Of a stretch of 47,900 nucleotides of DNA, positions 2,332 through 15,058 are shown piece by piece. The stretch spans positions 1 through 47,900 of the forward strand of contig CAJTZB010000001.1 in assembly GCA_910583815.1 (NCBI GenBank), read 5' to 3'. The DNA comes from an uncultured Lachnospiraceae bacterium (GTDB lineage Bacteria > Bacillota > Clostridia > Lachnospirales > Lachnospiraceae). A model generated the notes under the pieces. That model saw only the letters and a program-made list of their open reading frames with translations. It searched no databases and was not told the DNA's origin. Within the stretch, counting starts at the first letter, position 1. Every line of letters begins with the position of its first letter. The translations under genes were made by a program, and so were the position numbers.

Positions 2332-2370
2332 AGGTTTCCTATAAGGTAAAAAAGCATAAAACTAATGTCA

Positions 2371-2404
2371 GAAGGACTGGCCGTTTGCCGGTCCTTCTTT
2401 TTTT
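2371..2404 (+). terminator. rho-independent terminator downstream of the AraC-family gene
   Basis: GAAGGACTGGC (2371-2381) pairs with GCCGGTCCTTC (2387-2397) with one G-U pair, followed by a T7 run. Confidence 0.7.
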
Positions 2405-2432
2405 GCTTCATAGTATTTTAATCTTAAGTGGT

Positions 2433-2654
2433 TCATATAAATGGTTCTCCACATAAATCATCATATCGTTCCGAAGTTTCATATAGAGCAGGAGGACAGA
2501 CAGGACAATGACGAGCCGGTGGAAGATAGCTGCCGGTTTCCCGGCGGGAGATGGTCTTGTTTGTGATTCCAAGCTGCTCGCCTAGTGCTTCTTGTGTAAG
2601 ACCCCTTTCCTTGCGGAGCGCTGCGAGGAAACTTCCAATTTTGGCTGTATCCAT
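2433..2654 (-). CDS. XRE-family HTH protein, short and possibly a truncated remnant
   Basis: MDTAKIGSFLAALRKERGLTQEALGEQLGITNKTISRRETG is a clean Cro/C1 HTH. The sequence after the HTH (SYLPPARHCPVCPPALYETSERYDDLCGEPFI) does not read like a conserved continuation and ends early. Confidence 0.5.
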   Translation of the reverse strand: MDTAKIGSFLAALRKERGLTQEALGEQLGITNKTISRRETGSYLPPARHCPVCPPALYETSERYDDLCGEPFI

Positions 2655-2772
2655 AGACAGCGAATCTTTTTTATGGTCGAGCATTCGACATTTGAGTTAT
2701 TATAAATAGGAAAAACATGGATGGTGAAGAGCGATTCGGAAGCATTGTATATGGGAGGTGGTATATGGAAAT

Positions 2773-2967
2773 ATGGATAAAACAAATGAGGCAGGGCTGC
2801 TTTTGCACATATGGATAAGGTTGGATGAAATTAAAAATTTGCTCTCGGTTATTGAAAAGGGACTGGAAGAAGAGGGAGAGTGGAAGACAAGTGAGATGCA
2901 TGGAATAATAAACATAATAAAAAGAGAGCTAGAAGAGCTGATAGGAAAAATAGACCGGGCAGTTTAG
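2773..2967 (+). CDS. hypothetical small helical/acidic protein
   Basis: ORF only (MDKTNEAGLLLHIWIRLDEIKNLLSVIEKGLEEEGEW...). The nearby GGGAGG (2753-2758) is better placed for an out-of-frame 17-codon ATG at 2765, so coding status is uncertain. Confidence 0.3.
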   Translation: MDKTNEAGLLLHIWIRLDEIKNLLSVIEKGLEEEGEWKTSEMHGIINIIKRELEELIGKIDRAV

Positions 2968-3179
2968 CGGACATCCACTGGATCAGGAGTGATGGAAATC
3001 ACATCCTGAACAGAGCAATGCAGGCAGAAGCAAAGCTTCTCTAAAGTAAGGGTAGTTACATTTTCGTTATGCTTTAGTTTGTAGATAGTTCTGCGGTCTA
3101 TGCCATGTCTGGTAATCAGAGTATAGGTAGTTTCGCCTTTCTCCTCCATGGTTTTCCAGAGCGGTTCGTAGCTAATCAT
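2964..3179 (-). CDS. small HTH DNA-binding protein (Cro/XRE-like), divergent from the glycan operon
   Basis: MISYEPLWKTMEEKGETTYTLITRHGIDRRTIYKLKHNENVTTLTLEKLCFCLHCSVQDV follows the pattern of ~70-aa HTH regulators. AAAGGAGGG lies 7 nt upstream of ATG 3179 on the minus strand. Confidence 0.7.
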   Translation of the reverse strand: MISYEPLWKTMEEKGETTYTLITRHGIDRRTIYKLKHNENVTTLTLEKLCFCLHCSVQDVISITPDPVDVR

Positions 3180-3308
3180 GTAATTTCCCTCCTTTTTGCA
3201 GTATTTGTATATGGATGTCGTCAAGACATCGACACTATAGTTTCTGTAATTTCATTATATTTATATGCTGAATAAATTGATATTCTGAAAAAATACAGCA
3301 TAATAAGG

Positions 3309-3337
3309 TTGAAATATGGAATGATATGCTGTATAAT
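3309..3337 (+). promoter_or_regulatory. candidate sigma-A promoter of the glycan operon
   Basis: TTGAAA (3309-3314), 17-nt spacer, TATAAT (3332-3337), about 33 nt upstream of ATG 3370. Confidence 0.5.
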
Positions 3338-3347
3338 TACAGCATAT
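3324..3347. promoter_or_regulatory. 24-bp palindrome (candidate operator) overlapping the -10 box
   Basis: ATATGCTGTA-TAAT-TACAGCATAT has perfect 10-bp arms. The same half-sites recur at 3263-3270 (ATATGCTG) and 3296-3302 (CAGCATA). Confidence 0.5.
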
Positions 3348-3369
3348 TCGAGAAGGCAGGAAGCAGAAG

Positions 3370-4602
3370 ATGCAGAAAGAGATGGGAAAACAAAAAGTAC
3401 TAATCATAACAACAATCAGTGGCTTTCTGCAGCAGTTTGAATTAAATGATGTCAGAATTCTTCAGGCATTGGGCTATGAAGTGCATTATGCCAGCAATTT
3501 TGAAACTTCGGTTTATGGGATAGATAATGAGCAGTTGCAGAAGCTTGGGATAGTGATTCATCCAATCTCAATCCAAAAATCTCCCTGTGCGGTTGGGAAA
3601 AATTTAAAAGCTTTGCGAGAATTGTGCAGGATAATAAGGGAGGAGCGAATTTTAGCCATTCATTGCCATAACCCTCTTGGTGGAGTGGTGGGAAGGCTAG
3701 CAGCGTTTTTGGGCGGGAAGAAAAGGCCATATGTGCTTTATACAGCACATGGCTTTCATTTTTATAAAGGTGCGCCATTCGTTAACTGGATGCTGTTTTT
3801 TCCGGCAGAATATTTGCTTGCAAGACTGACTGACTGCCTGATTACAGTCAATGAGGAGGATTATCAAAGAGTGTGCGCGATGCCTCTTAAAAAAGGCGGA
3901 AGGGCAGAACGGATACCAAGTGTCGGGATAGCAGAAGAAAAGTTTTCAGATAGGGCAGAACTTCGCATGGGAATCCGTGAAAAACATGGAATTCCCGAAG
4001 ACTGTTTTTATATTCTGACGGCAGGGGAACTGAACCGGAACAAGAACCAACAGGTTTTGCTGCATACGGTTGCTTTGCTTGGGCAGGAAAAGATACACCT
4101 TGGCATCTGTGGAGAGGGCTCTTGCCGGGAGGGTTTAAAAGTGTTGGCAGAGGAGCTTGGGATTACAGAGAAAGTCAGCTTTTTAGGATATAGGAACGAT
4201 TTGTGGGAACTTCTTGCGGCGGCAGATGCTTTTGCCTTCCCATCAATTAGAGAGGGATTTGCCATTGCACCGCTCGAAGCGTTGGCAGCAGGGCTTCCGC
4301 TGATTACATCAGAGCGAAGGGACAGCAGGGAATACATAAGGGATGAGGAAAATGGTTTCCTTTGCAGAAAAAATATACCACAGGAGTATGTGAGGGCAAT
4401 CCGTATCCTGATAAAGCAGCCTGAATTAAGGAAGAAGATGTCGGAGAACGGAAGAGAAGCAGCAAAGAAGTATGCCCTGCCCAAAACAGAGTGCATTATG
4501 AAGAAAATATATAGCAGCATTGCAAGAGAACATCCTGTCAGAAGTCCACAGCAGAATACAGAAAACCAGGCTGAATGGGCAGCCGGGAAAGAAGGAAAGT
4601 AA
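3370..4602 (+). CDS. glycosyltransferase, GT4 (GT-B, retaining type)
   Basis: VLIITT...HCHNPLGGVVGRLAA...YTAHGFHFYKGAP...ITVNEEDY in the N-terminal domain, and FPSIREGFAIAPLEALAAGLPLITS (E-x7-E-like region) in the C-terminal domain. Confidence 0.85.
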   Translation: MQKEMGKQKVLIITTISGFLQQFELNDVRILQALGYEVHYASNFETSVYGIDNEQLQKLGIVIHPISIQKSPCAVGKNLKALRELCRIIREERILAIHCHNPLGGVVGRLAAFLGGKKRPYVLYTAHGFHFYKGAPFVNWMLFFPAEYLLARLTDCLITVNEEDYQRVCAMPLKKGGRAERIPSVGIAEEKFSDRAELRMGIREKHGIPEDCFYILTAGELNRNKNQQVLLHTVALLGQEKIHLGICGEGSCREGLKVLAEELGITEKVSFLGYRNDLWELLAAADAFAFPSIREGFAIAPLEALAAGLPLITSERRDSREYIRDEENGFLCRKNIPQEYVRAIRILIKQPELRKKMSENGREAAKKYALPKTECIMKKIYSSIAREHPVRSPQQNTENQAEWAAGKEGK

Positions 4603-5484
4603 ATGCAGGAGGAAAAGCGGCCGGAAATCAGCGTGATTATGGGGGTTTATAGTAACAAAGATGCAAAATGGCTGGAAGAGAGCATTTCTTCTGTTTTGAA
4701 CCAGACATTTCCGGACTTTGAGTTCATTATTTACAGTGATGGTTCAGATGCAGCAGTGTTGAAGCAGCTTGAGCAGTATGCGAAGCAAGATAAGCGGATT
4801 ATCTTGCTGCACAACTCTATAAATCATGGTCTGGCGTATTCGCTGAATGCCTGTATTGATGTTGCAAAGGGGAAGTATCTCGCACGTATGGATGATGACG
4901 ACATCTGTATGCCAGAACGCTTTGCTGTACAGTATGCATTTCTGGAGAAACATCCGGAAGTGGACTTTGTTGGCGCAAATGTAAAACTGATAGACAGTGA
5001 TGGTGTATGGGGTGTGCGTCATATGCCAGAATATCCGAAGAAACAGGATTTCCTAAGATATTCCCCTTTTGTCCATCCCAGTATTTTTATCAGACGAAGC
5101 ATTTTTGAAAAGGCAGGAAATTATCGGTCCTCGGATGAAACCTGGAGGTGTGAGGATTATGAACTGTTTATGCGTTTCTGGAGGATGGGATGCTGTGGGT
5201 GCAATCTTAGAGAGGAACTGCTTTGTTACAGGGAGGACAGGGACGCTTACCGGAAACGGAAATGGAAATACAGAATCAATGAGGTAAAGTTACGCTACCG
5301 GAATTTTAAAGAAATGGGACTGCTGTTTCCGATTGGCTGGGCGTATGTACTGCGTCCGATTGCTGCCGGAATTATTCCGGCAAGGCTGATTTTTGAAATC
5401 AAAAGACTATATCATTTGCAGGAAAAAACAGATGAAAGACGAATGGGAAAAAAGAATCCGGCATTACCAAAGAAGGTTAAATAA
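4603..5484 (+). CDS. glycosyltransferase, GT2 (GT-A)
   Basis: ISVIMGVYSN...SVLNQTFPDFEFIIYSDGS...YLARMDDDDI (DxD). ATG follows directly after the upstream stop. Confidence 0.85.
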   Translation: MQEEKRPEISVIMGVYSNKDAKWLEESISSVLNQTFPDFEFIIYSDGSDAAVLKQLEQYAKQDKRIILLHNSINHGLAYSLNACIDVAKGKYLARMDDDDICMPERFAVQYAFLEKHPEVDFVGANVKLIDSDGVWGVRHMPEYPKKQDFLRYSPFVHPSIFIRRSIFEKAGNYRSSDETWRCEDYELFMRFWRMGCCGCNLREELLCYREDRDAYRKRKWKYRINEVKLRYRNFKEMGLLFPIGWAYVLRPIAAGIIPARLIFEIKRLYHLQEKTDERRMGKKNPALPKKVK

Positions 5485-6835
5485 GGTACCAATATTTTCC
5501 GAACTGTCGGAAAACCTGTGGACAGAATGGAAGGAAGAATTGCCTGAGCAGGCAGTATTTGCAGCAACAACAAGCTTTGTGCTGGCACCAATGCTCTGCA
5601 GTTATGTTCTCTGGGTGCTGCAGGAGGCTGTCAGGGCTGGGAAACGACGTCTGTATTTTTTGGCGCGGGATGGCTATCAGATGTATCAGATTGCAGAAAT
5701 ATTCTGTGGCAAATGGGGAATTTCGCTGGAATGCAAATATCTGTACTGTTCACGGTATGCGCTCCGTATGGCAGAGTATGCCCTGCATATAGATGCTGCA
5801 TTGGACTATTTATGTCTGGACGGCATTTATGTAACTTTGGAAACCGTATGCAACCGAGCAGGGATATTTTCTGAGGAAGAAATAGAACAAGCAGCAGAGG
5901 CGCTTGGCATAGCAGACCGTAAAAGGCGGCTTTCCTATGCTGAGTTAAAGACGCTGAGAAAAAAACTGGGGCAGTATGAGGAGTTCAAAAGGAAGATGAA
6001 AGAAAAAGGAAAAGAAGCCTATAAATCAGCGATTGGATATTTCAGACAAGAAGGGATGTTGGAAGAGATTCCTTACGCGTTAGTAGACAGTGGGTGGTCC
6101 GGCAGCATTCAGCAATCCTTTCTCCGTCTGCTTCAGAGTGCCGGGAAAAAAGAAGGGATACAGGGCTATTACTTTGGACTGTATGAATGTCCGAAAAAGG
6201 CTGACAGAAGCACGTACGGTACTTACTATTTTTCGCCGGAGCGCAGATTGCGAAGAAAGGCAGCCTTTAACAACAACCTGTTTGAATGTGTCTGCACGTC
6301 GCCGGAAGGGATGACAAAAAGGTATGAATATGAAAATGGGGGCTATGTTCCACGTCTTTCCGACAGAAAAAATCCTAACGCAGCCAAGGTAAGGGTTCAT
6401 ACGGAATATTTTAGGCGCTATGCGGAAGGTTTGGCGGAGCAGATGGAAAAAAAGAATCCAAAACAAAGGAAAGAGGCCTCCAAAGTTCTGGCCTCCCTGT
6501 TTTCCCTGCTGATGGTAAGTCCGACATTAGAGGAAGCAAGGGAATATGGAAGCTATGTGTTCTGCGATGATGTAATTGGGGAAGAAAACCAGAGACTGGC
6601 AGCACCCTTAAGTAAATATGAACTGAAAGCAAACAGGCTTTTTCCGCAGATAGTAAGGAAGTATTTCCGTATAGATAATAAAGCAAGAAGCAGTGCGTGG
6701 GCGGAGGCAAGTGCGGTGCTTGCCTATGGAAGCAGGAAGAGGGCAAGAAAAACACTTAGGCAGCTTAGGGTGGTACAGTATGTGCGTTGTTTCAGGAAGC
6801 AGAGGAAAGCAAAATGTGGGATAAAGAGCAGATAA
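5432..6835 (+). CDS. uncharacterised protein, paralogous to the C-terminal ~430 aa of the 1035-aa protein (8449-11556)
   Basis: Shared blocks are RLYFLARDGYQMY vs KVHFIARDGYLPK, YLYCSRYALRMA vs YIYASRKSMIAA, and LVDSGWSGSIQQS vs AFDLGYSGKLQAS. The start is uncertain: the ORF is open from 5393, and AGGAAA precedes ATG 5432. It overlaps the end of the GT2 gene. Confidence 0.6.
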   Translation: MKDEWEKRIRHYQRRLNKVPIFSELSENLWTEWKEELPEQAVFAATTSFVLAPMLCSYVLWVLQEAVRAGKRRLYFLARDGYQMYQIAEIFCGKWGISLECKYLYCSRYALRMAEYALHIDAALDYLCLDGIYVTLETVCNRAGIFSEEEIEQAAEALGIADRKRRLSYAELKTLRKKLGQYEEFKRKMKEKGKEAYKSAIGYFRQEGMLEEIPYALVDSGWSGSIQQSFLRLLQSAGKKEGIQGYYFGLYECPKKADRSTYGTYYFSPERRLRRKAAFNNNLFECVCTSPEGMTKRYEYENGGYVPRLSDRKNPNAAKVRVHTEYFRRYAEGLAEQMEKKNPKQRKEASKVLASLFSLLMVSPTLEEAREYGSYVFCDDVIGEENQRLAAPLSKYELKANRLFPQIVRKYFRIDNKARSSAWAEASAVLAYGSRKRARKTLRQLRVVQYVRCFRKQRKAKCGIKSR

Positions 6836-7587
6836 AGCAATATGTGTTTGTCATACGAGAACTGACAGGGAGAGAGATTAAAAGAAAGTATGCAAGGTCC
6901 TATCTTGGAATCTTGTGGAGCGTGCTGAATCCGCTTTTGTCAATGGCAGTGATGTCTTTGATTTTCTCTGCAATGTTTAAAAGGAGCATTGAAAATTATC
7001 CAATTTATTATTTGACAGGCAATATTATTTGGTCGTTTTTTACAGGAGCAACCAACAGTGCAATGACGGCGCTTGTGGACAATAAAATGATGCTGATAAA
7101 AGTGAAGCTGCCAATGTCCATTTTTCCGTTGTCGAGGTGCTATACGGCGCTTGTAAATTTTGGGTATTCTATTATTGCGTTTACGATTATGTTGCTGGTA
7201 TTTAGGATTCCGCTTCAGCCCTATATTCTGCTTTTTCTATTATATGCGATAGGAGTATTTTTCTTTTCGCTTGGCATGGGGTATTGGCTTTCTGTTTTGT
7301 ATGCAATCTTTGGGGATATTAAGCATTTGTACTCTATTTTGCTGATGCTCTGGATGTATCTGTCGGCTCTTTTTTATCCGGTAGAGAATACAACGCCGAT
7401 GATGCAGGCCATTATTTTGCGGAATCCGATTTACAGCTTTATTTCATCGGCAAGAAAATGCATTTTATATGCAGAATTTCCTAGTACAGAGGAATGGTTT
7501 AGGATGTGCGGGTGGAGTATCGGAATGTACCTGTTTGGCAGGTTAGTATTCCAGAAAATGCAAAATAAGGTGTTACAGAAAATTTAG
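6814..7587 (+). CDS. ABC-2 type polysaccharide/teichoic-acid export permease (Wzm/TagG-like)
   Basis: REIKRKYARSYLGILWSVLNPLL signature followed by six hydrophobic segments. AGAGGAAAG precedes ATG 6814. Confidence 0.85.
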   Translation: MWDKEQIKQYVFVIRELTGREIKRKYARSYLGILWSVLNPLLSMAVMSLIFSAMFKRSIENYPIYYLTGNIIWSFFTGATNSAMTALVDNKMMLIKVKLPMSIFPLSRCYTALVNFGYSIIAFTIMLLVFRIPLQPYILLFLLYAIGVFFFSLGMGYWLSVLYAIFGDIKHLYSILLMLWMYLSALFYPVENTTPMMQAIILRNPIYSFISSARKCILYAEFPSTEEWFRMCGWSIGMYLFGRLVFQKMQNKVLQKI

Positions 7588-8366
7588 TGGAAAAAGGCAG
7601 CAGGAAAATGATAGAAGAAAAACAAATTGTGATAGACATAAAGCATATCAGTATGCAGTTTCGGATTGCAAAAGAGGCGTCAGGAAGTTTAAAAGAATTC
7701 CTGATTCGGATGGTTGGGAGGCAGAACAGTTATCAGACGATAAGCGTATTGGATGACATCAGCTTTCAGGCGAAGGAAGGTGATGTTATTGGGATTATCG
7801 GAACAAATGGCTCTGGAAAAAGTACGTTACTAAAGATTGTCTCAGGGGCATTGCAGCCGACAAGCGGAACAGTCATGGTAGACCGAAGCAAAGTACAGCT
7901 TTTAACACTTGGTACCGGTTTTGATATGGAACTGACAGCAAGAGAAAATGTATATCTGAATGGTGCGCTTATCGGCTACAGTAAGGAGTACTTGGATAGA
8001 ACATATGATGAAATTGTGGCTTTTGCCGAACTGGAAGGATTTATGGGGGAACGGATGAAGAATTTTTCTTCTGGTATGGTATCGCGGCTTGGTTTTGCGA
8101 TTGCCACAATGAGGGATACGCCGGAGATTCTGATTTTGGACGAAGTGCTGAGTGTTGGTGACATGTTCTTCCGAAAAAAGAGCGAGCAAAGGATCCAAGA
8201 GATGATACATGGCGGTGCGACCGTGCTGATTGTGTCGCATTCATTGGATGTTATTTTGAAAAACTGCAATTATGCAGTCTGGATTGAAAAAGGAAAGTTA
8301 CAGATGGCAGGTGCTGTAAAAGAAGTATGCGAGGGGTATAGAGGATACCAGAACAGAAAGAAATAG
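7587..8366 (+). CDS. ABC transporter ATP-binding protein (Wzt/TagH-like, no C-terminal carbohydrate-binding extension)
   Basis: Walker A GTNGSGKST, signature FSSGMVSRLGFA, Walker B ILILDE. The start is either GTG 7587 (overlapping the upstream stop) or ATG 7608. Confidence 0.85.
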   Translation: MEKGSRKMIEEKQIVIDIKHISMQFRIAKEASGSLKEFLIRMVGRQNSYQTISVLDDISFQAKEGDVIGIIGTNGSGKSTLLKIVSGALQPTSGTVMVDRSKVQLLTLGTGFDMELTARENVYLNGALIGYSKEYLDRTYDEIVAFAELEGFMGERMKNFSSGMVSRLGFAIATMRDTPEILILDEVLSVGDMFFRKKSEQRIQEMIHGGATVLIVSHSLDVILKNCNYAVWIEKGKLQMAGAVKEVCEGYRGYQNRKK

Positions 8367-8390: not shown

Positions 8391-8501
8391 ATGGGGACGG
8401 GAAAAAACAAAAAAGGGAAAATAAGGGAATTCGGGGGGGGGCAGAGATGTGGAAGAAAATGTAATCTATCCGAAGCTTTCGGTGATTGTACCGGTATATA
8501 A
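8391..8501 (+). other. 36-codon out-of-frame leader ORF that begins at the only good RBS/ATG upstream of the 1035-aa gene and runs through the G9 tract
   Basis: AGGAGG 8376-8381, ATG 8391, reads MGTGKNKKGKIREFGGGQRCGRKCNLSEAFGDCTGI, stop TAA 8499-8501. Removing one G would put it in frame with 8449-11556. Confidence 0.4.
8433..8441 (+). repeat. homopolymeric G9 tract (candidate slipped-strand phase-variation site)
   Basis: Direct read: tcGGGGGGGGGcagag. Confidence 0.9.
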
Positions 8502-11500
8502 TACGGAAAAATATATAGAAAACTGTCTGAACAGCATTAGCAGGCAGACATATCAGGATATGGAAGTCATCGTAGTGAATGATGGAAGCACAGATGGCTC
8601 TGCAGATATTATAGATCGTCTGATGCAAAAAGACAAGCGTATCAGATGTATTGCCAAAGAGAAAAATGGAGGGCTTTTTTGTGCAAGAGTCACAGGTGTG
8701 GAAAACTCTTTGGGAAAGTATATCGCTTTTGTAGACAGCGATGATACAGTCAGTGTGGATTGGTTTCGGCTTCTTGTGAAAAAAGCAGAAGAGACTGAAG
8801 CAGACATTGTTATGGGAAACACCGTTTGTGAAGATGAGAAACACAATAAATATATTTACAACACTTATTATTTTGCTGCGCGGTCAAGAGAGGATGTGCA
8901 TGGAGAGGCAGTCTTGGATTCTTTGATGGAAAATGAAGGAATGTGCTTTTCTAAGCATACCGTCTGGAACAAGCTGTATTCAAGAAGGATATGGGAACAG
9001 GCCCTGCCGCATTTCAGAATGATAAAACAGCATTTTGTTATGACAGAAGATATAGCATTTTCTGTAGTGCTTCATTATTATGCAAAAAAGCTGGCATATT
9101 CCAGACACGATGGATATTTCTATTATCGTAATGGAAGTTCTTCCACGATTGCAGTCAATGGATTGGAAAAGATAAAGAAAAATGTGAAAGACTTAAAGAA
9201 ATCTTTTTCCTTTGTGAAAGCATTTCTTCAGGAAAAAGAAGTATTTGAAAAATATGAAAAGAAATATCAAAACCTGAAAGACAGATATTTCAGATGGTGG
9301 AGTTATTCAGTAAAAAAGAATACAGAAGAAAAGTCAAAGGAAGCACAGTATGTCAGAAAGGATTTTCTTGCGTTTTTTGGAAAAACAGAGTTTGAAACTC
9401 CCAAAGAAGAGGATGATTTTTTTACAGATGCATACACAACATGGAATGGACAGTATGAGCAGTTAAAACTCTCGATTTTAGATGCAGCAATAGAATATGT
9501 TTCTTTTGATATTTTTGACACATTGATACTGCGGCCGTTTTTGGAACCAACAGATTTATATTTTTTTATGGAAAAGGAATTCAAGTCGCTGGTTCCGGGA
9601 AATCTTTCGTTTCATGAAGTAAGGGCTGATGCAGAACGTCTGTGCCGTAAAAATATAAAAATATGGGCTCCGAGCAGTCAGGATGTTACTTTGCAGGAAA
9701 TTTATGAACAGATGAGAAAGAGGTATCAATTTTCTGAGGATGTATGCAGACGCCTAATGAAAAAGGAGGAAGAGTTAGAGATTAAATTCTGCACGGAAAG
9801 AAAAGCAGGAAAAGAACTATATGAGATGGCACATGCTGCTGGAAAGAAAATTATTTTGATTTCGGACATGTATTTGGAGGAGGAAACAGTAAATGCTATT
9901 TTGCAGAAGAACGGATATACATTGCATGAAAAGCTGTTTTTGTCTTCCACGGAGCGATATTTAAAGTGTTCGGGCGATTTATTTAAAATTGCATTGCAGA
10001 CATGTCAGGTTCGGCCAGAAAGCATGCTGCATATTGGAGACAATTGGAATTCTGATTATCTGCAGCCGCCAAAGCTTGGCTGCAAATCGTTTTTTCTGCC
10101 AAAAACAAAGGATATTTTATTTAATACGCTTGGAGATGCTTATACTGGTGAGGCAATCAGTGCTACTTTTAATAATATCAATTCCATCATTGATACTTCC
10201 GCCATTATGAAAAATCCAATGGTACGTTCTTTATATGCGTTGGCTGCAAATGAGCTGTTTGACAATCCGTTTGTCTCGTTCAATTCAGCTTCAAACTATA
10301 ACAGGGATGCCTATTTTGTCGGCTATTTTACAGTGGGAATGCATTTGCTTGGGATTGGAAGATGGATGGCAAAAGAGCTGTGCAGAAGTAATTATGAAAA
10401 GGTTCATTTTATTGCAAGAGATGGTTATCTGCCTAAAAAAGTATATGACATTATCAGGAAGTACGAAACAGGTTTACCACCATCAGAATATATCTATGCA
10501 AGCAGGAAATCAATGATAGCAGCGTCAATACGTTCAAGCCTTGATTTATATAGTATCAAAGAAAACTGTTCTATTTACAGCCAGACACCAAAATCTATTT
10601 ATAAGTTATATGCGGACGTACTTGTGCCATTGGATGATGAGGTGCTTGGAAAGTTTAAAAAGCTGGGTATTTTATTTGATAGGAAATTTGCCAATGAAGA
10701 GGAGTTTCAGTTTTTTGTGGAACAGCTTGCAGAGATTGCTTATGACAAACAAAGGGCAGAAGAAAGTTATCAGAGCTGCAGCCGGTATTTTAAAGACAGA
10801 ATAGGGGAAGCGGACGTTGCGTTTGACTTGGGCTACAGCGGAAAGCTTCAGGCTTCTGTCTGCAGGGCGCTTGGATTTCCGATGGACGTGCTCTATCTGC
10901 ATTCTAACGGATTTGGAGCAACGCAGCAGGCGCGGTTTCACGGATACCATATCAAGAGCTATTATGATTTTGACACTTCGATGTCCGGTATTGTAAATGA
11001 GTTTATTTTTTCGGACTATGGTCCTTCTTGCATTGGCTACCGGATGGAGCAAGGGAAGGCTGTGCCGGTATTTGAGGAGAAAGAAACGGCATATCAGGAA
11101 AAATATCTGTTGGATGAAATTGCAAGAGGGTGCGAAAAGTATGTCGGGGATTTTTATAAAATATTTCAGGAACAGCTTTCTTTCTTCGATTTTCGCATTA
11201 TGGAGACATCGCTTCCATATGAGCGTTTTTTGATGAATCCGAAGTGGTTTGACCTGAATCTGCTGAAGTGCTGTTATCTGGAGGATGAATATTATGGGGG
11301 AATCAGCAGAAAGCGCCTTTCGGACCATTGGTGGTGGCAGATGAACCAACGCTGCCTTCTTGCGGAAAACATGCAGCAGAACAGTGGGATTGCCGTACCT
11401 TTAAATGCAGATTCGGAATTGGGGCAGATCTATCAGGATGGAGTATTTGTTGCTGTTTACCGGAAAATCAACAGGCTGTTTCCGCTTGGAAGCAGGAGGC

Positions 11501-11556
11501 GCGAATTTTTAAAGAAGATTGGCGGGAAGGTGGCAGGGCAAAGAAAAAGAACATAG
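8449..11556 (+). CDS. three-domain protein: GT2 glycosyltransferase, HAD-like hydrolase domain, and an uncharacterised C-terminal domain
   Basis: GT2: LSVIVPVYNTEKYI...VVNDGSTDGS...FVDSDD. HAD-like: VSFDIFDTLILRP (nt 9508-9522), ILISDMY, HIGDNWNSD. C-terminal: FIARDGY (10414-10428) and DLGYSGKLQ. As assembled, the only start is GTG 8449 with no clear SD. Confidence 0.8.
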   Translation: MEENVIYPKLSVIVPVYNTEKYIENCLNSISRQTYQDMEVIVVNDGSTDGSADIIDRLMQKDKRIRCIAKEKNGGLFCARVTGVENSLGKYIAFVDSDDTVSVDWFRLLVKKAEETEADIVMGNTVCEDEKHNKYIYNTYYFAARSREDVHGEAVLDSLMENEGMCFSKHTVWNKLYSRRIWEQALPHFRMIKQHFVMTEDIAFSVVLHYYAKKLAYSRHDGYFYYRNGSSSTIAVNGLEKIKKNVKDLKKSFSFVKAFLQEKEVFEKYEKKYQNLKDRYFRWWSYSVKKNTEEKSKEAQYVRKDFLAFFGKTEFETPKEEDDFFTDAYTTWNGQYEQLKLSILDAAIEYVSFDIFDTLILRPFLEPTDLYFFMEKEFKSLVPGNLSFHEVRADAERLCRKNIKIWAPSSQDVTLQEIYEQMRKRYQFSEDVCRRLMKKEEELEIKFCTERKAGKELYEMAHAAGKKIILISDMYLEEETVNAILQKNGYTLHEKLFLSSTERYLKCSGDLFKIALQTCQVRPESMLHIGDNWNSDYLQPPKLGCKSFFLPKTKDILFNTLGDAYTGEAISATFNNINSIIDTSAIMKNPMVRSLYALAANELFDNPFVSFNSASNYNRDAYFVGYFTVGMHLLGIGRWMAKELCRSNYEKVHFIARDGYLPKKVYDIIRKYETGLPPSEYIYASRKSMIAASIRSSLDLYSIKENCSIYSQTPKSIYKLYADVLVPLDDEVLGKFKKLGILFDRKFANEEEFQFFVEQLAEIAYDKQRAEESYQSCSRYFKDRIGEADVAFDLGYSGKLQASVCRALGFPMDVLYLHSNGFGATQQARFHGYHIKSYYDFDTSMSGIVNEFIFSDYGPSCIGYRMEQGKAVPVFEEKETAYQEKYLLDEIARGCEKYVGDFYKIFQEQLSFFDFRIMETSLPYERFLMNPKWFDLNLLKCCYLEDEYYGGISRKRLSDHWWWQMNQRCLLAENMQQNSGIAVPLNADSELGQIYQDGVFVAVYRKINRLFPLGSRRREFLKKIGGKVAGQRKRT

Positions 11557-11570
11557 AAGGAGGATAGTGC

Positions 11571-13085
11571 ATGGTTTTATATTTTGTAAAAACAACATAT
11601 CAATTGTTGGAGTGCATCATACATAAATTCACGGTACATGAAGCAGAAGATGCAGTGCTGCTTATAAATAATGGCCATGTGAAAAATTATCCAAATTATG
11701 AACAGCTAGAACAGTTTGGATTTAAAAAAATTATTATTTATACCACAGGAAAAATCACAAGTAAGGAAACAGATGACAAGAGGAAATTTGTAAATGATAT
11801 TGTGAAGTATTACGATGAGCTGTTTGAGAAGGATTCTATTGATTTGGATATGATGTCATGTATTTATTCTTTTGCTGCATTGCGCTTTAGTATTTATTTG
11901 ATAGAGAAAAAAAAGAAATTTTTCTTGTTTGAAGATGGGGTAGGGGCAGCGAAGACTTTAGGATTGGTTTTGTGGAGAGAAAATCTAGATAAAGTTGATA
12001 AAAATGCATTGGCAAGGAAATATGGGCTCTTTGATGGAAGCAATAGCTTAATATCTAATATCTACTATAATCCGTCTAAAGGAATTTTAGATAACAGTAA
12101 GGCAGTTTTTTATGATGTGTCAAAAGAGCTAGAAAAACTATCAGAAGAAAGGAGAGATAGTATTATTTCGTTTTTCTCCAAAGAGCATACCAAGAGGCAG
12201 CAAGAGGTTGATAATTTAGTTTTATTCCGGCATTGCTATGCCGGAAGTGAAAGCTTTGACAGCCAGCAAAGCAGTCTGTTGGAGTTTGTTTTGGATTGGT
12301 TTGGGGTAGAGGGAAATTTTGTTGTGAAGACGCATCCGATGGATATGGCTCACTACAAGGAATACCCTAATGTAGAGTGGATTGACAGACAGCTTCCCTC
12401 GGAATTATTGCCATATGTGATTGGAGATAAAGTAATAAATCTAATCGCTGTAGCTACGACGTCATTTTATTCATTTAGTGAAAGGGCTTTTAGGACTTGC
12501 TATCTCAGTTATGATGTGGCTGAAATGAAAAGGGGAATAAGCAGGGAAGTTATGGCATTAAAGCTTATCAGGGAAGTGGGATTAGAAAAGCATGTTTTTT
12601 CAATATATGGTATGTATACTCAAATTTCCAAAATAGTTATTGAAAAATATTATCAGAAAGATGTGAATGTACTATGGGGGAACTTTGGGACAAATGAAAA
12701 AGAAGTGCTGCTGATTGACGAACTGATCTGGGGAAAACAGAAGAATGACTGCAAAAAAGAATTAAACAGGTTTATGCGGCGATGCGATGCAGAATCAATA
12801 GTTGTATTTCTTGATTCAAAAGGCAATATGGAGTTTTGTAAATGTATAGATGAGGAAATGTTTCCATATATGCTGAGCTATCATATTGAGTATGATTTTG
12901 CCTATGGCACAAAGCTTAGTGAATATATACATATATGGTGTAAAAGCGATATGCTGAGAAAACGTTTAGCTTATGCAAGAAGTATAAAATTTCTTCCGTT
13001 TACTCAGACCGTTGTGAGGATTTCTATTGCAGAAGGATGGGAGAGGATAAAAATGCAGAGCCGGATTGCGATGGAGAAACTTTGA
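11571..13085 (+). CDS. putative CMP-sugar-dependent glycosyltransferase, sialyltransferase-like (GT52-like motifs), with a ~200-aa C-terminal extension
   Basis: LFEDGVG (EDG at 11931-11939) and VVKTHPMD (HP at 12333-12338) lie 134 aa apart. The N-terminus is MVLYFVKTTYQLLECIIHKF. It sits next to two cytidylyltransferase genes and is visibly more AT-rich than its neighbours. Confidence 0.5.
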   Translation: MVLYFVKTTYQLLECIIHKFTVHEAEDAVLLINNGHVKNYPNYEQLEQFGFKKIIIYTTGKITSKETDDKRKFVNDIVKYYDELFEKDSIDLDMMSCIYSFAALRFSIYLIEKKKKFFLFEDGVGAAKTLGLVLWRENLDKVDKNALARKYGLFDGSNSLISNIYYNPSKGILDNSKAVFYDVSKELEKLSEERRDSIISFFSKEHTKRQQEVDNLVLFRHCYAGSESFDSQQSSLLEFVLDWFGVEGNFVVKTHPMDMAHYKEYPNVEWIDRQLPSELLPYVIGDKVINLIAVATTSFYSFSERAFRTCYLSYDVAEMKRGISREVMALKLIREVGLEKHVFSIYGMYTQISKIVIEKYYQKDVNVLWGNFGTNEKEVLLIDELIWGKQKNDCKKELNRFMRRCDAESIVVFLDSKGNMEFCKCIDEEMFPYMLSYHIEYDFAYGTKLSEYIHIWCKSDMLRKRLAYARSIKFLPFTQTVVRISIAEGWERIKMQSRIAMEKL

Positions 13086-13102
13086 TGGAAGAGGGAGATG
13101 TT

Positions 13103-13435
13103 ATGTACTATATGGAATACAAAGAAATCGGAAGGCGGATTGCAGAAAGGCGGAAAAAACTCCGCATGACTCAGGCAGAGGTAGAGGACAGGGCAAATTT
13201 AAGCCGCAAGTATTTATCCAATATTGAACATGGACGTTCTGTTCCTTCCATTGATGTCCTGATGCAGATTGCAGATGTGTTACATAGTACGCCAAATGAA
13301 TTTTTGCTTGGGGCAGACTTGACAGGCAGGTCAGAACTGGCTGCCGCACTGACTTCCGATATCCAGCGTCTGTCAGAGGATAAGCAGGCAATAGCGAAGA
13401 GCTTTATTGGCTGGCTGGAAGAACAGCAGTCGTAA
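13103..13435 (+). CDS. XRE-family transcriptional regulator embedded in the glycan locus
   Basis: IGRRIAERRKKLRMTQAEVEDRANLSRKYLSNIEHGRSVPSIDVLMQIADVLHSTPNEFL. GAGGGAG 13091-13097 precedes ATG 13103. Confidence 0.8.
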   Translation: MYYMEYKEIGRRIAERRKKLRMTQAEVEDRANLSRKYLSNIEHGRSVPSIDVLMQIADVLHSTPNEFLLGADLTGRSELAAALTSDIQRLSEDKQAIAKSFIGWLEEQQS

Positions 13436-13470: not shown

Positions 13471-14202
13471 ATGGAAAAGAAGGAAACAAATGTTCGATGG
13501 GGGGGGGTAACGGCTGTTATTCCGGTTAGGGCCGGAAGCAGGCGCCTGAAAAATAAAAATGTAGCCCCATTCGCAGGGACAAATCTTTTGCTGAATAAAA
13601 TTGAACAGCTGAAAAAGGTATCAGAGGTAGAACGCATTGTTGTTACTTCTGATTCTGACATGATGCTCGCAATGGCAGAACAGGCAGGGGCGCTGATACA
13701 TAAACGTGCACCTGAGTTTTGTGACGAATCTACCAAAACGTTTGGAGAAGTAGTACGCCATGTAGCAGAAAATGTACAAGGAGAGCATATTCTTTGGGCG
13801 ACCTGTACTTCGCCGCTTGTGTTTCCGTCTACCTATGAGCAGGCAATTGCAAAGTATTGGGAAGCACTTGAAGCAGGGTATGACTCTTTGGTTTCGTTTG
13901 AAAGAATCAAGCGTTATCTTTGGAATGAAGAAGGACCGCTTAATTATGAACTTGGACTGAAACACGTGCCTTCACAGCAGCTGCCTGACCTTTATATTGT
14001 AACCGATGGAATTTTACTTGCTCCGCGTGAAAAAATGATAGAGTGGTCTTATTTCCACGGAAGGAATCCATACAAGTTCATTGTAGACAAGCGTACTGCT
14101 ATGGATATTGATGATGGGCTTGATTTGGCGACCGCCAGGGCATGGCTTGACATGGATGAGAGCGTATCTCATATTGAGCCTTTTTCCAAAGGAACGATGT
14201 AA
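13471..14202 (+). CDS. cytidylyltransferase of the CMP-NeuAc/CMP-Kdo synthetase superfamily (CTP_transf_3-like)
   Basis: VTAVIPVRAGSRRLKNKNVAPFAGTNLL...VVTSDSD...HILWATCTSPL. AGGAGG precedes ATG 13471. Codons 10-13 contain the G9 tract. Confidence 0.8.
   Translation: MEKKETNVRWGGVTAVIPVRAGSRRLKNKNVAPFAGTNLLLNKIEQLKKVSEVERIVVTSDSDMMLAMAEQAGALIHKRAPEFCDESTKTFGEVVRHVAENVQGEHILWATCTSPLVFPSTYEQAIAKYWEALEAGYDSLVSFERIKRYLWNEEGPLNYELGLKHVPSQQLPDLYIVTDGILLAPREKMIEWSYFHGRNPYKFIVDKRTAMDIDDGLDLATARAWLDMDESVSHIEPFSKGTM
13499..13507 (+). repeat. homopolymeric G9 tract inside codons 10-13 of the cytidylyltransferase (in frame as assembled)
   Basis: Direct read: cgatGGGGGGGGGtaacg, translating ...RWGGV... 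Confidence 0.9.
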
Positions 14203-14297
14203 TCAGCAGCAAAAGAAATCCTCACGAATGGATGAAAATATCCGTCTGTGGGGATTTTTGTTTCCCGGAGACGGCAAACAGCCGAGGAGGGAAGATA

Positions 14298-14957
14298 ATG
14301 AGAGCAGCATGCTTTATACCAATTAAAGCAAATTCGGAACGTGTTCCGGGAAAGAACTTCAGAATACTGAATGGAAAAAAGCTATATGAGTACATAGTGG
14401 CGCATGCAATAGAAGCCGCCTGCTTTGATGATATTTATATTGATACAAACAGTGAGGAAATCAAGGATTATGCTTTGGAACGAGGACTGTCTGTTATTGA
14501 CCGCCTAGATACTCTGGCTCAAAATACAGCAAATGGAAATGACCTTCTTGTTTATCATGGAAAGCAATATCCGCAATATGATTATTATTTTCAGCTATTT
14601 GCAACTGCACCGTATTTACAGCCGGAATCTATCAGAAACTGTTTTGAAGCATTGGTTTCCAGCGAAGAATACGATTCCTGCTTTACTGCATTGCAGAACA
14701 ACAGCTTTTATTGGCTGAATCACATGCCGATTAATTACAGACCGGGGATTTTGCCACGCAGTCAGGATATGGTGCCGGTTGTAGAAGAAACTACCGGCAT
14801 GTATGGAATCAGTAAAGATTCTCTTGGAAAATACCAATGCAGAATCGGCAGGAATCCATATATTTATTATGTCAGTAAGTTTGAAGCAGTGGATATCAAT
14901 ACAGAGGAAGATTTGCTGATAGCAGAGTATATTGGGAAACAGTACTGGAATATGTAA
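14298..14957 (+). CDS. second cytidylyltransferase paralogue (acylneuraminate cytidylyltransferase-like family)
   Basis: MRAACFIPIKANSERVPGKNFRILNGKKLYEYIVAHAIEAACFDDIYIDTNSEEI. GAGGAGGG precedes ATG 14298. Confidence 0.8.
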   Translation: MRAACFIPIKANSERVPGKNFRILNGKKLYEYIVAHAIEAACFDDIYIDTNSEEIKDYALERGLSVIDRLDTLAQNTANGNDLLVYHGKQYPQYDYYFQLFATAPYLQPESIRNCFEALVSSEEYDSCFTALQNNSFYWLNHMPINYRPGILPRSQDMVPVVEETTGMYGISKDSLGKYQCRIGRNPYIYYVSKFEAVDINTEEDLLIAEYIGKQYWNM

Positions 14958-15022: not shown

Positions 15023-15058
15023 GTCAGGGTGTCAAAAAAACTTTTTTGACATCCTGAC
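15023..15058. terminator. 17-bp-stem hairpin between convergent genes (bidirectional terminator candidate); member of the GGGTGTCAAAA hairpin family
   Basis: GTCAGGGTGTCAAAAAA / TTTTTTGACATCCTGAC with one G-U pair. A/T runs flank the loop on both strands. Confidence 0.6.

Follow-up and report, generated by a model that had tools for sequence, protein, structure and literature searches.

A putative sialyltransferase relative paired with a predicted ribofuranosyltransferase in an exporter-containing glycosyltransferase locus of an uncultured Lachnospiraceae bacterium

When displayed on the bacterial surface, sialic-acid-like and Kdo-like sugars influence immune recognition, phage binding and colonization. 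To our knowledge, transferases for such sugars in Gram-positive bacteria are almost unknown. According to a study of B. subtilis sps, the known sialyltransferase families include no Bacillus glycosyltransferase (PMC7439481). Here we ask which reaction is catalyzed by a 504-aa protein (the target) encoded in the DNA of an uncultured Lachnospiraceae bacterium, and on which polymer it acts. The whole stretch of 47,900 nucleotides that was analyzed is termed the window. An earlier note, made from the sequence alone, had taken the target for a horizontally acquired, CMP-ulosonic-acid-dependent transferase, GT52-like or of a new family, that modifies an exported polymer.

Position and length of the open reading frame were found to be as the earlier note had given them (Table 1). 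The GGAGG ribosome-binding site is located 7 nt upstream of the ATG and only 3 nt past the stop codon of the preceding gene, here termed the partner gene. Because this spacing is tight, target and partner gene are probably co-transcribed. The GC content of the target gene was 35.0% (GC3 34.5%), ranging between 20% and 47% in 60-nt windows, while the 23 genes of the window outside the locus had a GC content of 44.7 ± 1.9%. The target is the lowest-GC gene of the window (z = -5.1). The earlier note was therefore right about the direction of the deviation, whereas its estimate of 25-30% was too low and its value of about 42% for asd compares with 46.7% measured over that gene. The anomaly is real although milder than claimed, and horizontal transfer is not proven by a low GC content alone.

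Table 1. Features of the locus and of the target protein (positions in the window).
Feature	Position	Strand	Evidence or remark
GT4 glycosyltransferase, first cluster gene	3370..4602	+	Pfam Glycos_transf_1 6.5e-43
GT2 glycosyltransferase	4603..5484	+	Pfam Glycos_transf_2 6e-30
Stand-alone CriT-like protein, 467-480 aa	5432..6835	+	No Pfam match; phmmer vs Bcs3 656-848, E 7.7e-10
ABC-2 type permease, TagG/Wzm-like	6787..7587	+	Pfam ABC2_membrane 7e-15
ABC transporter ATPase, TagH/Wzt-like, 259 aa	7587..8366	+	Pfam ABC_tran 1.5e-21
Partner gene, 1035 aa: GT2, CrpP-like HAD phosphatase and CriT-like ribofuranosyltransferase	8449..11556	+	Pfam, phmmer, profile
GGAGG ribosome-binding site of the target ORF	11559..11563	+	Read from sequence
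Target ORF, 504 aa	11571..13085	+	ATG start; sialyltransferase-like GT-B core aa 1-~334 plus C-terminal domain
E121-D122-G123-V124-G125, D/E-D/E-G loop, putative catalytic base	11931..11945	+	Conservation; MhPST E152/E153 (PMC5517516)
K253-T-H255-P256-M-D258, HP motif block	12327..12344	+	Conservation; MhPST K289/H291 (PMC5517516)
P276-S-E278-L-L, putative ribose 2'/3'-OH-binding Glu	12396..12410	+	Conservation, order and spacing
T296-T297, S/T pair, putative phosphate contact	12456..12461	+	Conservation; MhPST S339/T340 (PMC5517516)
C-terminal domain, aa 335-504	12573..13082	+	Small Rossmann-like alpha/beta unit, beta-sheet, terminal helix
XRE-family HTH regulator, 116 aa	13085..13435	+	Pfam HTH_3 6.2e-14; begins at the target's stop codon
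Cytidylyltransferase 1, CTP_transf_3, NeuA-like	13471..14202	+	Pfam 4.7e-16
Cytidylyltransferase 2, CTP_transf_3, NeuA-like, last cluster gene	14232..14957	+	Pfam 9.3e-19

The earlier note had placed EDG at aa 121-123 (nt 11931-11939) and HP at aa 255-256 (nt 12333-12338). Both were placed correctly, and each occurs only once in the target. D/E-D/E-G and HP are the motifs common to the bacterial GT-B sialyltransferases of GT38, GT52 and GT80. Since [DE][DE]G and HP arose together in 5.5% of composition-matched shuffles of the target (0.7% when the right order and spacing were demanded), these short motifs are weak evidence by themselves. An extended pattern of four blocks, E-[DE]-x-x-G / K-x-H-P-x-D / P-S-E-L-L / S-T, was found in 142 of 156 diverse homologues but in none of 20,000 shuffles. 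The residues of the four blocks were 97-100% conserved among the 156 representatives, the mean identity of which is only ~20%. E121 was conserved in 99%, position 122 was D or E in 100% and G125 was present in 99%, while the third position of D/E-D/E-G (aa 123) was G in 41% and A in 54%. K253, H255 and D258 were each conserved in 100% and P256 in 99%, as were E278 (100%) and P276 (99%) of the third block. Position 296 was S in 97% and otherwise T, and position 297 was T or S. The residues on which the earlier note was based are hence kept among the homologues.

The GT38 polysialyltransferase MhPST of Mannheimia haemolytica was crystallized with CDP, and its functional residues are E152/E153, K289, H291, E323 and S339/T340 (PMC5517516). 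Judged from sequence, the four-block pattern appears to mirror these catalytic and CMP-binding residues, the equivalences being based on order, spacing and conservation. The Glu follows the His by 23 residues in the target and by 32 in MhPST, and the S/T pair follows the Glu by 18 and 16 residues, respectively. By analogy, K253 is a putative cytosine contact and H255 a putative catalytic acid or phosphate contact.

An AlphaFold model of the target (pLDDT 87.8, pTM 0.80) was compared to the PDB with Foldseek, by which the possibility of an unrelated fold was also checked. The core was found to be a GT-B fold starting with a strand (residues 2-6) and a helix (9-21), in agreement with the N-terminal strand/helix start described in the earlier note. 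The best match was MhPST (5wc6_A, E 2.2e-6, probability 1.00), a modest one with TM 0.39/0.50 and 13% identity over 420 aligned columns, and the next was the GT80 sialyltransferase 4v2u. No GT52 structure was among the top fold matches. The beta-Kdo transferases of GT99/GT107 were rejected as a class for the target, since WbbB (8csb) only ranked 43 (E 0.023, TM 0.22-0.25). It ranked well below sialyltransferases and generic GT-B enzymes.

By sequence, the target reached the threshold of no Pfam or NCBIfam model. It did not match the Pfam GT38 model PF07388 (cutoff 23.3 bits) even at E ≤ 10, nor the GT52 model PF07922 (curated cutoff 26.1 bits). Two relatives, P0002 and P0005, were likewise below both cutoffs; P0005 is a fusion with a hexapeptide acyltransferase. 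Among 85 family members, 36 matched GT38 and 18 matched GT52 at E ≤ 0.01. Main-clade relatives scored 34-41 bits with GT38 (P0158, P0029, P0169) and 30-45 bits with GT52 (P0007, P0169, P0183, P0158), with the whole core covered in both cases. The relatives matching GT52 span profile positions ~16-260 of 272, several of them above the cutoff. When the PDB was searched by sequence and by profile with three queries (A1, A2 and P0007), no sialyltransferase was found and the matches were noise. When the family profile was compared to E. coli K1 NeuS the right motifs aligned, although neither score was significant by itself (hhalign probability ~8%, hmmsearch 2.4 bits). In this weak alignment the E121 loop of the target is placed with I-E-E-G-T-G and the K-x-H-P block with K-P-H-P of NeuS.

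The target thus belongs to a large, uncharacterized family of 2,064 representative clusters, a distant relative of GT38 as well as of GT52, which has a C-terminal domain of its own and is annotated in public databases as "hypothetical protein" only. The wording "GT52-like or a new family" was fair, as main-clade relatives pass both cutoffs and the target passes neither. The emphasis on GT52 holds only in part, because GT38 is at least equally close.

The C-terminal residues in which the earlier note had recognized no motif, ~335-504, indeed matched no Pfam or NCBIfam model. This domain is conserved over its full length across the family and was modelled separately with a pLDDT of 86.7. In most family members the C-terminus is formed by a conserved helix of ~36 aa, IKVLEGxLEATEKRLLYYI; the terminal helix of the target is 16 aa compared to a family median of 36. 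The fold matches of the domain were weak and class-I methyltransferase-like. A methyltransferase function was rejected on the basis of these values (TM 0.24-0.37, RMSD 11-15 Å) and of a family consensus without a glycine-rich SAM loop.

The PRPP-dependent ribofuranosyltransferase predicted from the partner gene is the most informative neighbor of the target and was absent from the earlier note. In 13 of 14 loci the partner gene immediately precedes the family gene. Its product in the window has a GT2 domain (aa ~8-250; Pfam 2.8e-40), a HAD phosphatase domain (~350-555; Pfam match below threshold) and a PRPP-dependent ribofuranosyltransferase domain (~560-1035). The window partner alone matched H. 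influenzae type b Bcs3 by phmmer with an E of 1e-16 (aa 349-694) and the ribofuranosyltransferase 7shg with 1.1e-10, while a profile of 15 partners matched Bcs3 385-961 at E 4.9e-44 and 7shg at 4.6e-38. The partner block S-F-D-I-F-D-T-L aligns with T-F-D-I-F-D-T-L of Bcs3, which contains D386. In Bcs3, CriT is a PRPP-dependent ribose-5-P transferase and CrpP a phosphatase, and the roles of the two domains are taken from that work (PMC10299916). By sequence comparison, the partner would therefore be a Bcs3-type module, with a HAD phosphatase including the nucleophile Asp followed by a CriT-type PRPP transferase. The stand-alone CriT-like protein of the window is a second candidate ribofuranosyltransferase, without the phosphatase domain, and has homologues in five other loci (L008, L011, L017, L020 and L022).

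Carriers of such loci include Angelakisella and Neobacillus ginsengisoli. One locus (L017) also has an LCP ligase gene. In the window a promoter-like site with 11/12 matches was noted at 3309-3337 and a terminator-like hairpin at 15023-15058. The PDB entries closest to cytidylyltransferase 1 were NeuA/CMP-Neu5Ac synthetases (E 7.8e-11); a weak match to PseF was below the cutoff, and the protein is 38% identical to L011_CTP of another locus. Cytidylyltransferase 2, which probably starts at 14298, was closest to PpNeuA (1.6e-18) and shares 39% identity with L008_CTP, whose gene lies ahead of an aldolase gene and a KdsC-like gene. A CTP_transf_3 cytidylyltransferase adjoins the family gene in every locus with enough flank, Neobacillus excepted. 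It is NeuA-like in the window and KdsB-like in loci L007 and L010 (218-228 bits compared to a cutoff of 193). The NeuA/KdsB-type gene that follows the family genes is usually accompanied by genes for an HMGL-like aldolase and a phosphatase. NeuB or KdsA was never found downstream of family genes across the examined loci, and within the window neither of these nor an aldolase-type synthase was found, despite the two cytidylyltransferases.

Taken together, we infer with a probability of about 70% that the target is a sialyltransferase relative that adds a sialic-acid-like or Kdo-like sugar to a ribose-containing wall polymer. The CMP-ulosonic-acid-dependent activity proposed in the earlier note is supported by the GT-B sialyltransferase-like fold, the conserved motifs and the two downstream cytidylyltransferases, which are of the class of CMP-sialate and CMP-Kdo synthetases, and the ABC-2 exporter in the locus agrees with its proposal of an exported polymer as substrate. 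The target would be an inverting, metal-independent GT-B enzyme using a CMP-activated 2-keto-3-deoxy acidic sugar, either a sialic-acid-like nonulosonate or a Kdo/Kdn-like ulosonate; this donor class is suggested because the adjoining cytidylyltransferases are NeuA/KdsB-type. By analogy with GT38, GT52 and GT80, the cytidine would be held by K253 and E278 and the phosphate of the leaving CMP stabilized by H255 and T296/T297. On closure of the two halves, the E121/D122 loop of the N-terminal Rossmann half would deprotonate the acceptor hydroxyl. Because the pairing of target and partner is conserved, the acceptor is likely a ribofuranose-containing chain. A characterized precedent for transfer from CMP-Kdo to such a ribofuranose is the K. 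pneumoniae O4 pathway described below (PMC11231755). The GT4, GT2 and CriT-like enzymes encoded in the locus would build the chain on a lipid carrier in the cytoplasm, with the CrpP-CriT-type module of the partner adding beta-ribofuranose from PRPP and then stripping the 5-phosphate. Export by the ABC-2 transporter would give a wall-linked, teichulosonic-acid-like glycopolymer. Since the partner in the target's sub-clade is itself a two-transferase protein, we lean, for this sub-clade, toward a hexose-Ribf backbone that the target branches or caps, rather than toward a backbone polymerase.

A variant that differs in role only is that the target terminates the chain, which we consider possible but not the likelier case. 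It has a parallel in K. pneumoniae O4, an ABC-transporter pathway in which a CMP-Kdo transferase acts on Ribf provided by a PRPP-dependent enzyme. There ORF5 is a gPRT-PRP ribofuranosyltransferase, and ORF7 is an alpha-Kdo transferase, the founding member of GT137, with a methyltransferase-like double beta/alpha/beta, non-GT-B structure, a TPR-like bundle and a C-terminal coiled-coil, and with no similarity to known glycosyltransferases (PMC11231755). The parallel is close, and the terminal helix of most family members would fit, as would a sub-clade partner with two transferases (GT2 and CriT), sufficient for a disaccharide repeat. However, the terminal helix of the target itself is cut short, the ABC ATPase of the window has no carbohydrate-binding extension, and no Wzt-type carbohydrate-binding module was found in relatives with long ABC ATPases; the extension in L017 is N-terminal and matches no such module. 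As GT137 is described as non-GT-B while the core of the target is GT-B, membership of GT137 was rejected on the published description, and the likeness to O4 would be one of convergence and not homology.

It is also possible, but again not the likelier case, that the target is a co-polymerase that makes an alternating Ribf/ulosonic acid backbone with its CrpP-CriT partner, in place of the TagF-like CroT of Bcs3. Such a backbone would resemble that of the group 2 capsules made of Rib and Kdo in E. coli (K13/K20/K23) and in Kingella kingae. The strict adjacency of partner and family gene is in agreement with this role, but a capping enzyme predicts it equally. The model of the processive polysialyltransferases, GT38, was matched by more members than GT52, two CrpP-CriT paralogues with few further glycosyltransferases are common in main-clade loci, and in Bcs3 such modules make up one polymerase machine (PMC10299916). 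In the window, on the other hand, the GT4, GT2 and GT2-fusion enzymes could make the backbone without the target.

A further reading is that the locus has lost its aldolase and phosphatase genes and gained an HTH gene, so that the window copy may be non-functional, or may rely on scavenged gut sialic acid that the two NeuA-like enzymes would activate. Of 11 distinct loci with sufficient flank, only the window and Neobacillus were without the HMGL-like gene, and the XRE regulator, with no equivalent in other loci, sits where relatives have the cytidylyltransferase right after the family gene; the shortened terminal helix points the same way. We nevertheless regard such decay or orphan status as unlikely. 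The ORF is intact with all conserved catalytic residues and a strong ribosome-binding site, both cytidylyltransferases are retained intact, and the identical protein and gene order were found in 17 contigs from several samples, while synthase genes may sit elsewhere in the fragmented MAG.

A CDP donor was considered because the CrpP-CriT part of Bcs3 works with a TagF-like, CMP-releasing GT-B transferase of CDP-ribitol (PMC10299916), but a TagF/CroT-like phosphotransferase that takes a CDP-alcohol or CDP-sugar and forms the phosphodiester links of a teichoic-acid-like polymer is highly improbable: even though the K/H/E/S-T constellation would bind CMP or CDP and not the sugar, MhPST having been crystallized with CDP (PMC5517516), and the locus depends on an ABC transporter as wall teichoic acid does, the Pfam model of TagF (Glyphos_transf) matched 0 of 85 members at E ≤ 0.01, no TagF structure was among the top 50 fold matches, every associated nucleotidyltransferase belongs to the NeuA/KdsB class (CTP_transf_3) and none to the CDP-alcohol-making TagD, TarI or LicC classes, and an alditol-phosphate dehydrogenase was found in none of the loci.

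With the preferred reading, a transferase of acidic sugars to a ribose-containing polymer, a family of ~2,000 clusters of "hypothetical protein" bears what would be the full catalytic signature of sialyltransferases and has as its conserved partner a recently discovered type of enzyme, the PRPP-dependent ribofuranosyltransferase. Most loci also hold a candidate non-canonical donor pathway. We tentatively suggest, as a speculative extension, that an HMGL-like pyruvate aldolase of the DRE-TIM type might, together with a phosphatase and a NeuA/KdsB-type cytidylyltransferase, supply a CMP-3-deoxy-2-ulosonic acid without a PEP-dependent synthase of the NeuB/KdsA type, and that the new family might link this sugar to PRPP-derived Ribf. 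This would be an undescribed Gram-positive pathway to Ribf-ulosonate "teichulosonic" wall polymers that would be widespread among Clostridia and Bacilli of the gut. No description of the family or the pathway was found in literature searches covering teichulosonic acids, Gram-positive Kdo and the combination of aldolase and cytidylyltransferase. The loci provide concrete, testable enzyme pairs for ribose-ulosonate glycan synthesis, and suggest that in many gut Firmicutes the wall contains acidic polymers that so far have not been looked for.

Compared to known systems, the target has the HP and D/E-D/E-G motifs in common with GT52 (Neisseria Lst/NST), from which it differs in architecture and genomic context and by scoring under the threshold. 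To GT38 (MhPST 5wc6 and E. coli K1 NeuS) the likeness extends to the GT-B fold, with the best structural match, and to a D/E-D/E-G loop and a K-x-H-P block, which a putative ribose-binding Glu and a putative phosphate-binding S-T pair follow in the same order and with similar spacing. Both are also part of ABC-transporter-dependent surface polymer pathways. The target differs from GT38 by its score under the Pfam threshold, its 13% identity to 5wc6 and the marginal profile comparison to NeuS; it alone has the extra C-terminal domain of ~170 aa, it is paired with a ribofuranosyltransferase and not with NeuB/NeuC/NeuE, and its hosts are Gram-positive.

The window partner is homologous to the Thermobacillus composti ribofuranosyltransferase 7shg and to the CrpP and CriT parts of Bcs3 (8a0c; domains CroT-CrpP-CriT-SH3b), although it has an added N-terminal GT2 domain. 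The Bcs3 system and the target locus both have a ribofuranosyl module, an ABC exporter and a GT-B enzyme that releases CMP, or in the case of the target is predicted to do so. Whereas the GT-B part of Bcs3 is TagF-like and uses CDP-ribitol, the target is separate, sialyltransferase-like and found with NeuA/KdsB-type cytidylyltransferases.

Teichulosonic acids of actinomycetes are Kdn- or nonulosonate-containing wall polymers (Tul'skaya et al., 2011). As Gram-positive, ulosonic-acid-containing wall glycopolymers they resemble the product predicted for the target, but they are from Actinobacteria and known from chemistry; no gene-level description of them was found in the literature searches. 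The logic proposed for the target locus is that of K. pneumoniae O4, with an ABC-dependent glycan, a PRPP-derived Ribf and a CMP-ulosonate transferase that acts on the Ribf, and the target, with its sialyltransferase-like GT-B core, would, judged from the published description of O4 ORF7, be an analogue and not a homologue of that enzyme.

The target, the sialyltransferase-like ORF downstream of a 1035-aa partner protein, was found to encode 504 aa, as the earlier note had proposed, from an ATG start, and is preceded by a GGAGG sequence three bases past the stop of the upstream gene. The EDG (aa 121-123) and HP (aa 255-256) motifs are located where they had been reported, each occurring once. 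Two such short motifs alone are weak evidence, since EDG-type and HP motifs co-occur in 5.5% of composition-matched shuffles (0.7% with correct order and spacing). The GC content was measured to 35.0% (GC3 34.5%), so the earlier estimate of 25-30% was too low; that of asd is 46.7%. The compositional deviation is nevertheless real, the target being the lowest-GC gene of the window (z = -5.1 relative to 23 non-locus window genes with a mean of 44.7 ± 1.9%), and the partner (39.3%) and the second cytidylyltransferase (39.9%) of the cluster are also low in GC. Surface-glycan loci are often low in GC. The nearest homologue, P0002, is 65% identical and has a conserved gene order. Horizontal transfer is plausible judged from sequence, and the certainty with which it had been stated needs correction.

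The target matched neither Pfam nor NCBIfam models. An exhaustive profile search at E ≤ 1e-3 identified a family of 2,064 representative clusters, of which 457 remained at E ≤ 1e-30; almost all members have 500-570 aa and match along their full length. The C-terminal ~170 residues, which had been noted as extra, therefore belong to what is conserved throughout a large family. Among 156 representatives with a mean identity to the target of ~20%, four blocks were essentially invariant. E121 and G125 are each conserved in 99% and position 122 is always acidic; K253-x-H255-P256-x-D258 is conserved in 99-100%; E278 within P276-[S/A]-E278-[L/F]-[L/I] is found in 100%, and S/T296-T/S297 is essentially invariant. 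The combined four-block pattern was found in 142 of the 156 representatives and in none of 20,000 target shuffles. Residues of equivalent type occur in the same order in MhPST, the GT38 polysialyltransferase of Mannheimia haemolytica, where E152/E153 form the D/E-D/E-G loop including the catalytic base, cytosine is contacted by K289, H291 serves as catalytic acid at the phosphate, and the ribose hydroxyls and the phosphate are bound by E323 and S339/T340, respectively, a constellation common to GT52 and GT80 as well (PMC5517516). PMC7439481 credits Freiberger et al. (2007) with the original definition of the sialyltransferase motifs.

A confident AlphaFold model of the target based on the family alignment (mean pLDDT 87.8, pTM 0.80) contains two Rossmann-like halves (aa 1 to ~334) followed by a separate domain. 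In a Foldseek search of the PDB the best match was the polysialyltransferase structure 5wc6 (E 2.2e-6, TM 0.39/0.50), with 4v2u, a GT80 alpha-2,3-sialyltransferase (E 9.9e-5), and generic GT-B enzymes next in rank, while the Kdo transferase WbbB (GT99) ranked 43 (E 0.02). The modeled fold is GT-B with a polysialyltransferase as top match, and not an unrelated one. PDB searches by sequence or profile retrieved no sialyltransferase. A Pfam scan of 85 family members identified GT38 in 36 (best 2.8e-12) and GT52 in 18 (best 2.7e-12), and no other glycosyltransferase family. Individual main-clade members scored 34-41 bits against GT38 (curated cutoff 23.3) and 30-45 bits against GT52 (cutoff 26.1) over the whole GT-B core, whereas the target and the two relatives nearest to it, P0002 and P0005, fall below both cutoffs. 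Against NeuS of E. coli K1, as encoded in the kps cluster of UTI89, the family profile aligned only marginally (hhalign probability ~8%, hmmsearch 2.4 bits), placing F-E-D-x-x-G over I-E-E-G-T-G and, co-linearly, K-x-H-P...P-S-E-L-L...T-S over K-P-H-P...E-P-D-F-L-I-E-P...T-S-S-S. The target is fairly described as a divergent member of an uncharacterized family between GT38 and GT52 in the sialyltransferase-type GT-B group. The original assignment, GT52-like or a new family, is a reasonable one, except for its stress on GT52, to which the family is no closer than to GT38.

Modeled separately (pLDDT 86.7), the C-terminal domain is a small alpha/beta unit with a beta-sheet and a terminal helix, and its sole PDB neighbors are class-I methyltransferases with poor TM-scores (0.24-0.37). 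The C-terminus of most family members is formed by a conserved helix of ~36 residues, IKVLEGxLEATEKRLLYYI, which is shortened to 16 residues in the target. Two members have C-terminal fusions: in P0005 the added part is a hexapeptide-repeat acyltransferase that brings sialate O-acetyltransferases to mind, in P0006 a set of Sel1 repeats.

The window corresponds to contig CATLGQ010000001.1 of the MAG GCA_949935705.1. The gene cluster extends from a promoter-like site to a terminator-like hairpin, and the target protein and gene order are repeated in 17 contigs from several samples. Both cytidylyltransferases are closer to NeuA-type CMP-sialic-acid synthetases than to KdsB, and no ulosonic-acid synthase of any type was found within the window. 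The XRE-type gene between transferase and cytidylyltransferases begins at the target stop codon, has a normal GC content (46%) in contrast to its low-GC neighbors, and has no counterpart at this position in related loci. The stretch upstream of the cluster contains small ORFs only and could mark an edge of the glycan locus, of regulatory or insertion type. SpoIID and other window genes point to a spore-forming Firmicute. Across positions 1-47900 nearly all long ORFs lie on the plus strand, and the GC skew stays positive, its cumulative value rising monotonically, a pattern that fits a leading-strand stretch of a Firmicute chromosome.

Coordinates of features in the window and in homologous loci (L numbers)
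Feature	Location	Strand
Small ORFs only	2300-3370	
Strong terminator-like hairpin	2370-2398	
HTH-like 83-aa ORF	2433-2684	-
86-aa ORF (HTH_26 call in L001)	2964-3224	-
Promoter-like site	3309-3337	
GT4	3370-4602	+
GT2	4603-5484	+
467-aa protein, no Pfam match	5432-6835	+
ABC-2 permease	6787-7587	+
ABC ATPase	7587-8366	+
1035-aa partner	8449-11556	+
GGAGG	11559-11563	
Target	11571-13085	+
EDG	11931-11939	
HP	12333-12338	
XRE-type HTH gene	13085-13435	+
CTP_transf_3 cytidylyltransferases, two	13471-14202, 14232-14957	+
Terminator-like hairpin	15023-15058	
Second CrpP-CriT-like paralogue	L016:5980-7803, L017:4486-6585, L010:3863-5698, L019:5756-7798	
HMGL-like genes (and others)	L007:11931-13532, L008:10610-11620, L010:11770-13341, L016:12224-13852, L017:12233-13828	
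ABC ATPases of 500-630 aa	L017:2636-4489, L022:1800-3689, L011:5816-7318	
P0005	L007:7195-9558	
Radical SAM enzyme and Acyl_transf_3 membrane acyltransferase	L010:6353-7351, L010:13467-14735	
Partner and family gene pair (Neobacillus ginsengisoli JAUSTW010000001.1)	L015:8046-11542	

By Pfam the partner has an N-terminal GT2 domain and a weak HAD match. A profile built from 15 proteins directly upstream of family genes matched residues 385-961 of Bcs3, the Haemophilus influenzae type b capsule polymerase (E 4.9e-44), and 7shg, a ribofuranosyltransferase of Thermobacillus composti (E 4.6e-38); the window partner sequence alone gave 1e-16 and 1.1e-10, respectively. The matched region of Bcs3 comprises CrpP, a HAD phosphatase, and CriT; ribofuranose-5-phosphate is moved from PRPP by CriT, after which CrpP strips the 5-phosphate (PMC10299916). 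The nucleophile block F-D-I-F-D-T-L is retained in the partners. The 467-aa protein aligns with residues 656-848 of Bcs3, in the CriT region (E 7.7e-10), and has no phosphatase domain; the locus therefore contains two ribofuranosyltransferase-like modules; homologues of this protein are found in L008, L011, L017, L020 and L022. A divergent second paralogue of the CrpP-CriT-like partner is present in many loci of the main clade and would imply at least two ribofuranose additions per repeat or chain.

Across 17 family loci annotated with Pfam, a CrpP-CriT-like partner was located directly 5' of the family gene in 13 of the 14 having upstream sequence. A CTP_transf_3 gene adjoins the family gene in every locus with enough flank except that of Neobacillus, and those of L007 and L010, with 218-228 bits, score above the cutoff of 193 set for a KdsB subfamily. 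No NeuB, KdsA or NeuC-type gene was found in any annotated family locus. Of 11 distinct loci with sufficient flanking sequence, 9 have an HMGL-like (DRE-TIM) aldolase-type gene, the exceptions being the window and Neobacillus. Next to it there is normally a phosphatase gene on the downstream side, whose type differs between loci: HAD, KdsC family (L008, 150 bits with the cutoff at 107) or inositol-monophosphatase family (L019). The aldolase-type gene normally lies between the NeuA/KdsB-type cytidylyltransferase and the phosphatase, in the slot expected for a NeuB/KdsA synthase. The aldolase-like protein is nearest to 4-hydroxy-2-oxovalerate aldolases, scoring under their cutoffs, and its nearest structure is the uncharacterized "putative aldolase" 3dxi (E 5.8e-32). 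It has an N-terminal LDCTLRDGGY motif and in most cases a length of ~530 aa, of which the C-terminal half (~260 aa) is unassigned.

ABC-2 transporters are common among the loci; L017 and L025 encode a hexapeptide acyltransferase and L017 an LCP ligase. Some ABC ATPases are long. That of L017 has its nucleotide-binding domain C-terminally (aa 408-613) behind a ~400-aa extension with a weak Cadherin-like Pfam match, a layout opposite to that of Wzt, in which the carbohydrate-binding modules are C-terminal. A radical SAM enzyme and a membrane acyltransferase in L010 suggest additional sugar or polymer modification. Hosts include Angelakisella sp. (Clostridia), Neobacillus ginsengisoli (Bacilli), where the family protein is annotated "hypothetical protein", and human gut metagenomes. 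In the Neobacillus isolate genome the partner and the family gene stand alone, genes for a cytidylyltransferase, an aldolase or an ABC exporter being absent from the vicinity; the pair adjoins the spore-coat genes cotJA-cotJB-cotJC, which hints at a role in a spore-surface glycan in Bacilli.

Altogether, the best-supported reading is that the target would act as an inverting CMP-ulosonate transferase in an ABC-transporter-dependent wall glycopolymer pathway, where its acceptor would contain ribofuranose and be supplied by the partner. The CMP-ulosonic-acid dependence was already the core of the earlier note, and it is supported by the fold, the conserved motifs, the family matches and the adjacent cytidylyltransferases. 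The target could cap, branch or co-polymerize. The GT2 and CriT pair of the partner suggests that the backbone could be made without the target in this sub-clade. Neither the short ABC ATPase of the window carries a carbohydrate-binding module nor the long one of L017 a Wzt-type module, and recognition of a terminal cap is therefore not supported. A TagF-like transferase using a CDP donor is disfavored by Pfam, by the cytidylyltransferase class and by the fold, TagF structures being absent from the best 50 Foldseek matches.

No description of the family, the ribofuranosyltransferase pairing or the aldolase-based donor module was found in the searchable literature. The enzyme class, sialyltransferase-type GT-B, is already known, whereas the family, its architecture, the obligate partner (13/14 loci) and the likely donor route are new. 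The two-domain gPRT-PRP logic of the partner is the same as that of Klebsiella O4 and O7 (PMC11231755). K. pneumoniae O4 is a characterized analogue: its repeat is Gal-Ribf, synthesized with the help of a PRPP-dependent enzyme, and Ribf is capped with alpha-Kdo by ORF7, the founding CMP-Kdo transferase of GT137, which has a coiled-coil (PMC11231755). Since ORF7 is described as non-GT-B, the resemblance of the O4 system to that of the target is functional rather than homologous.
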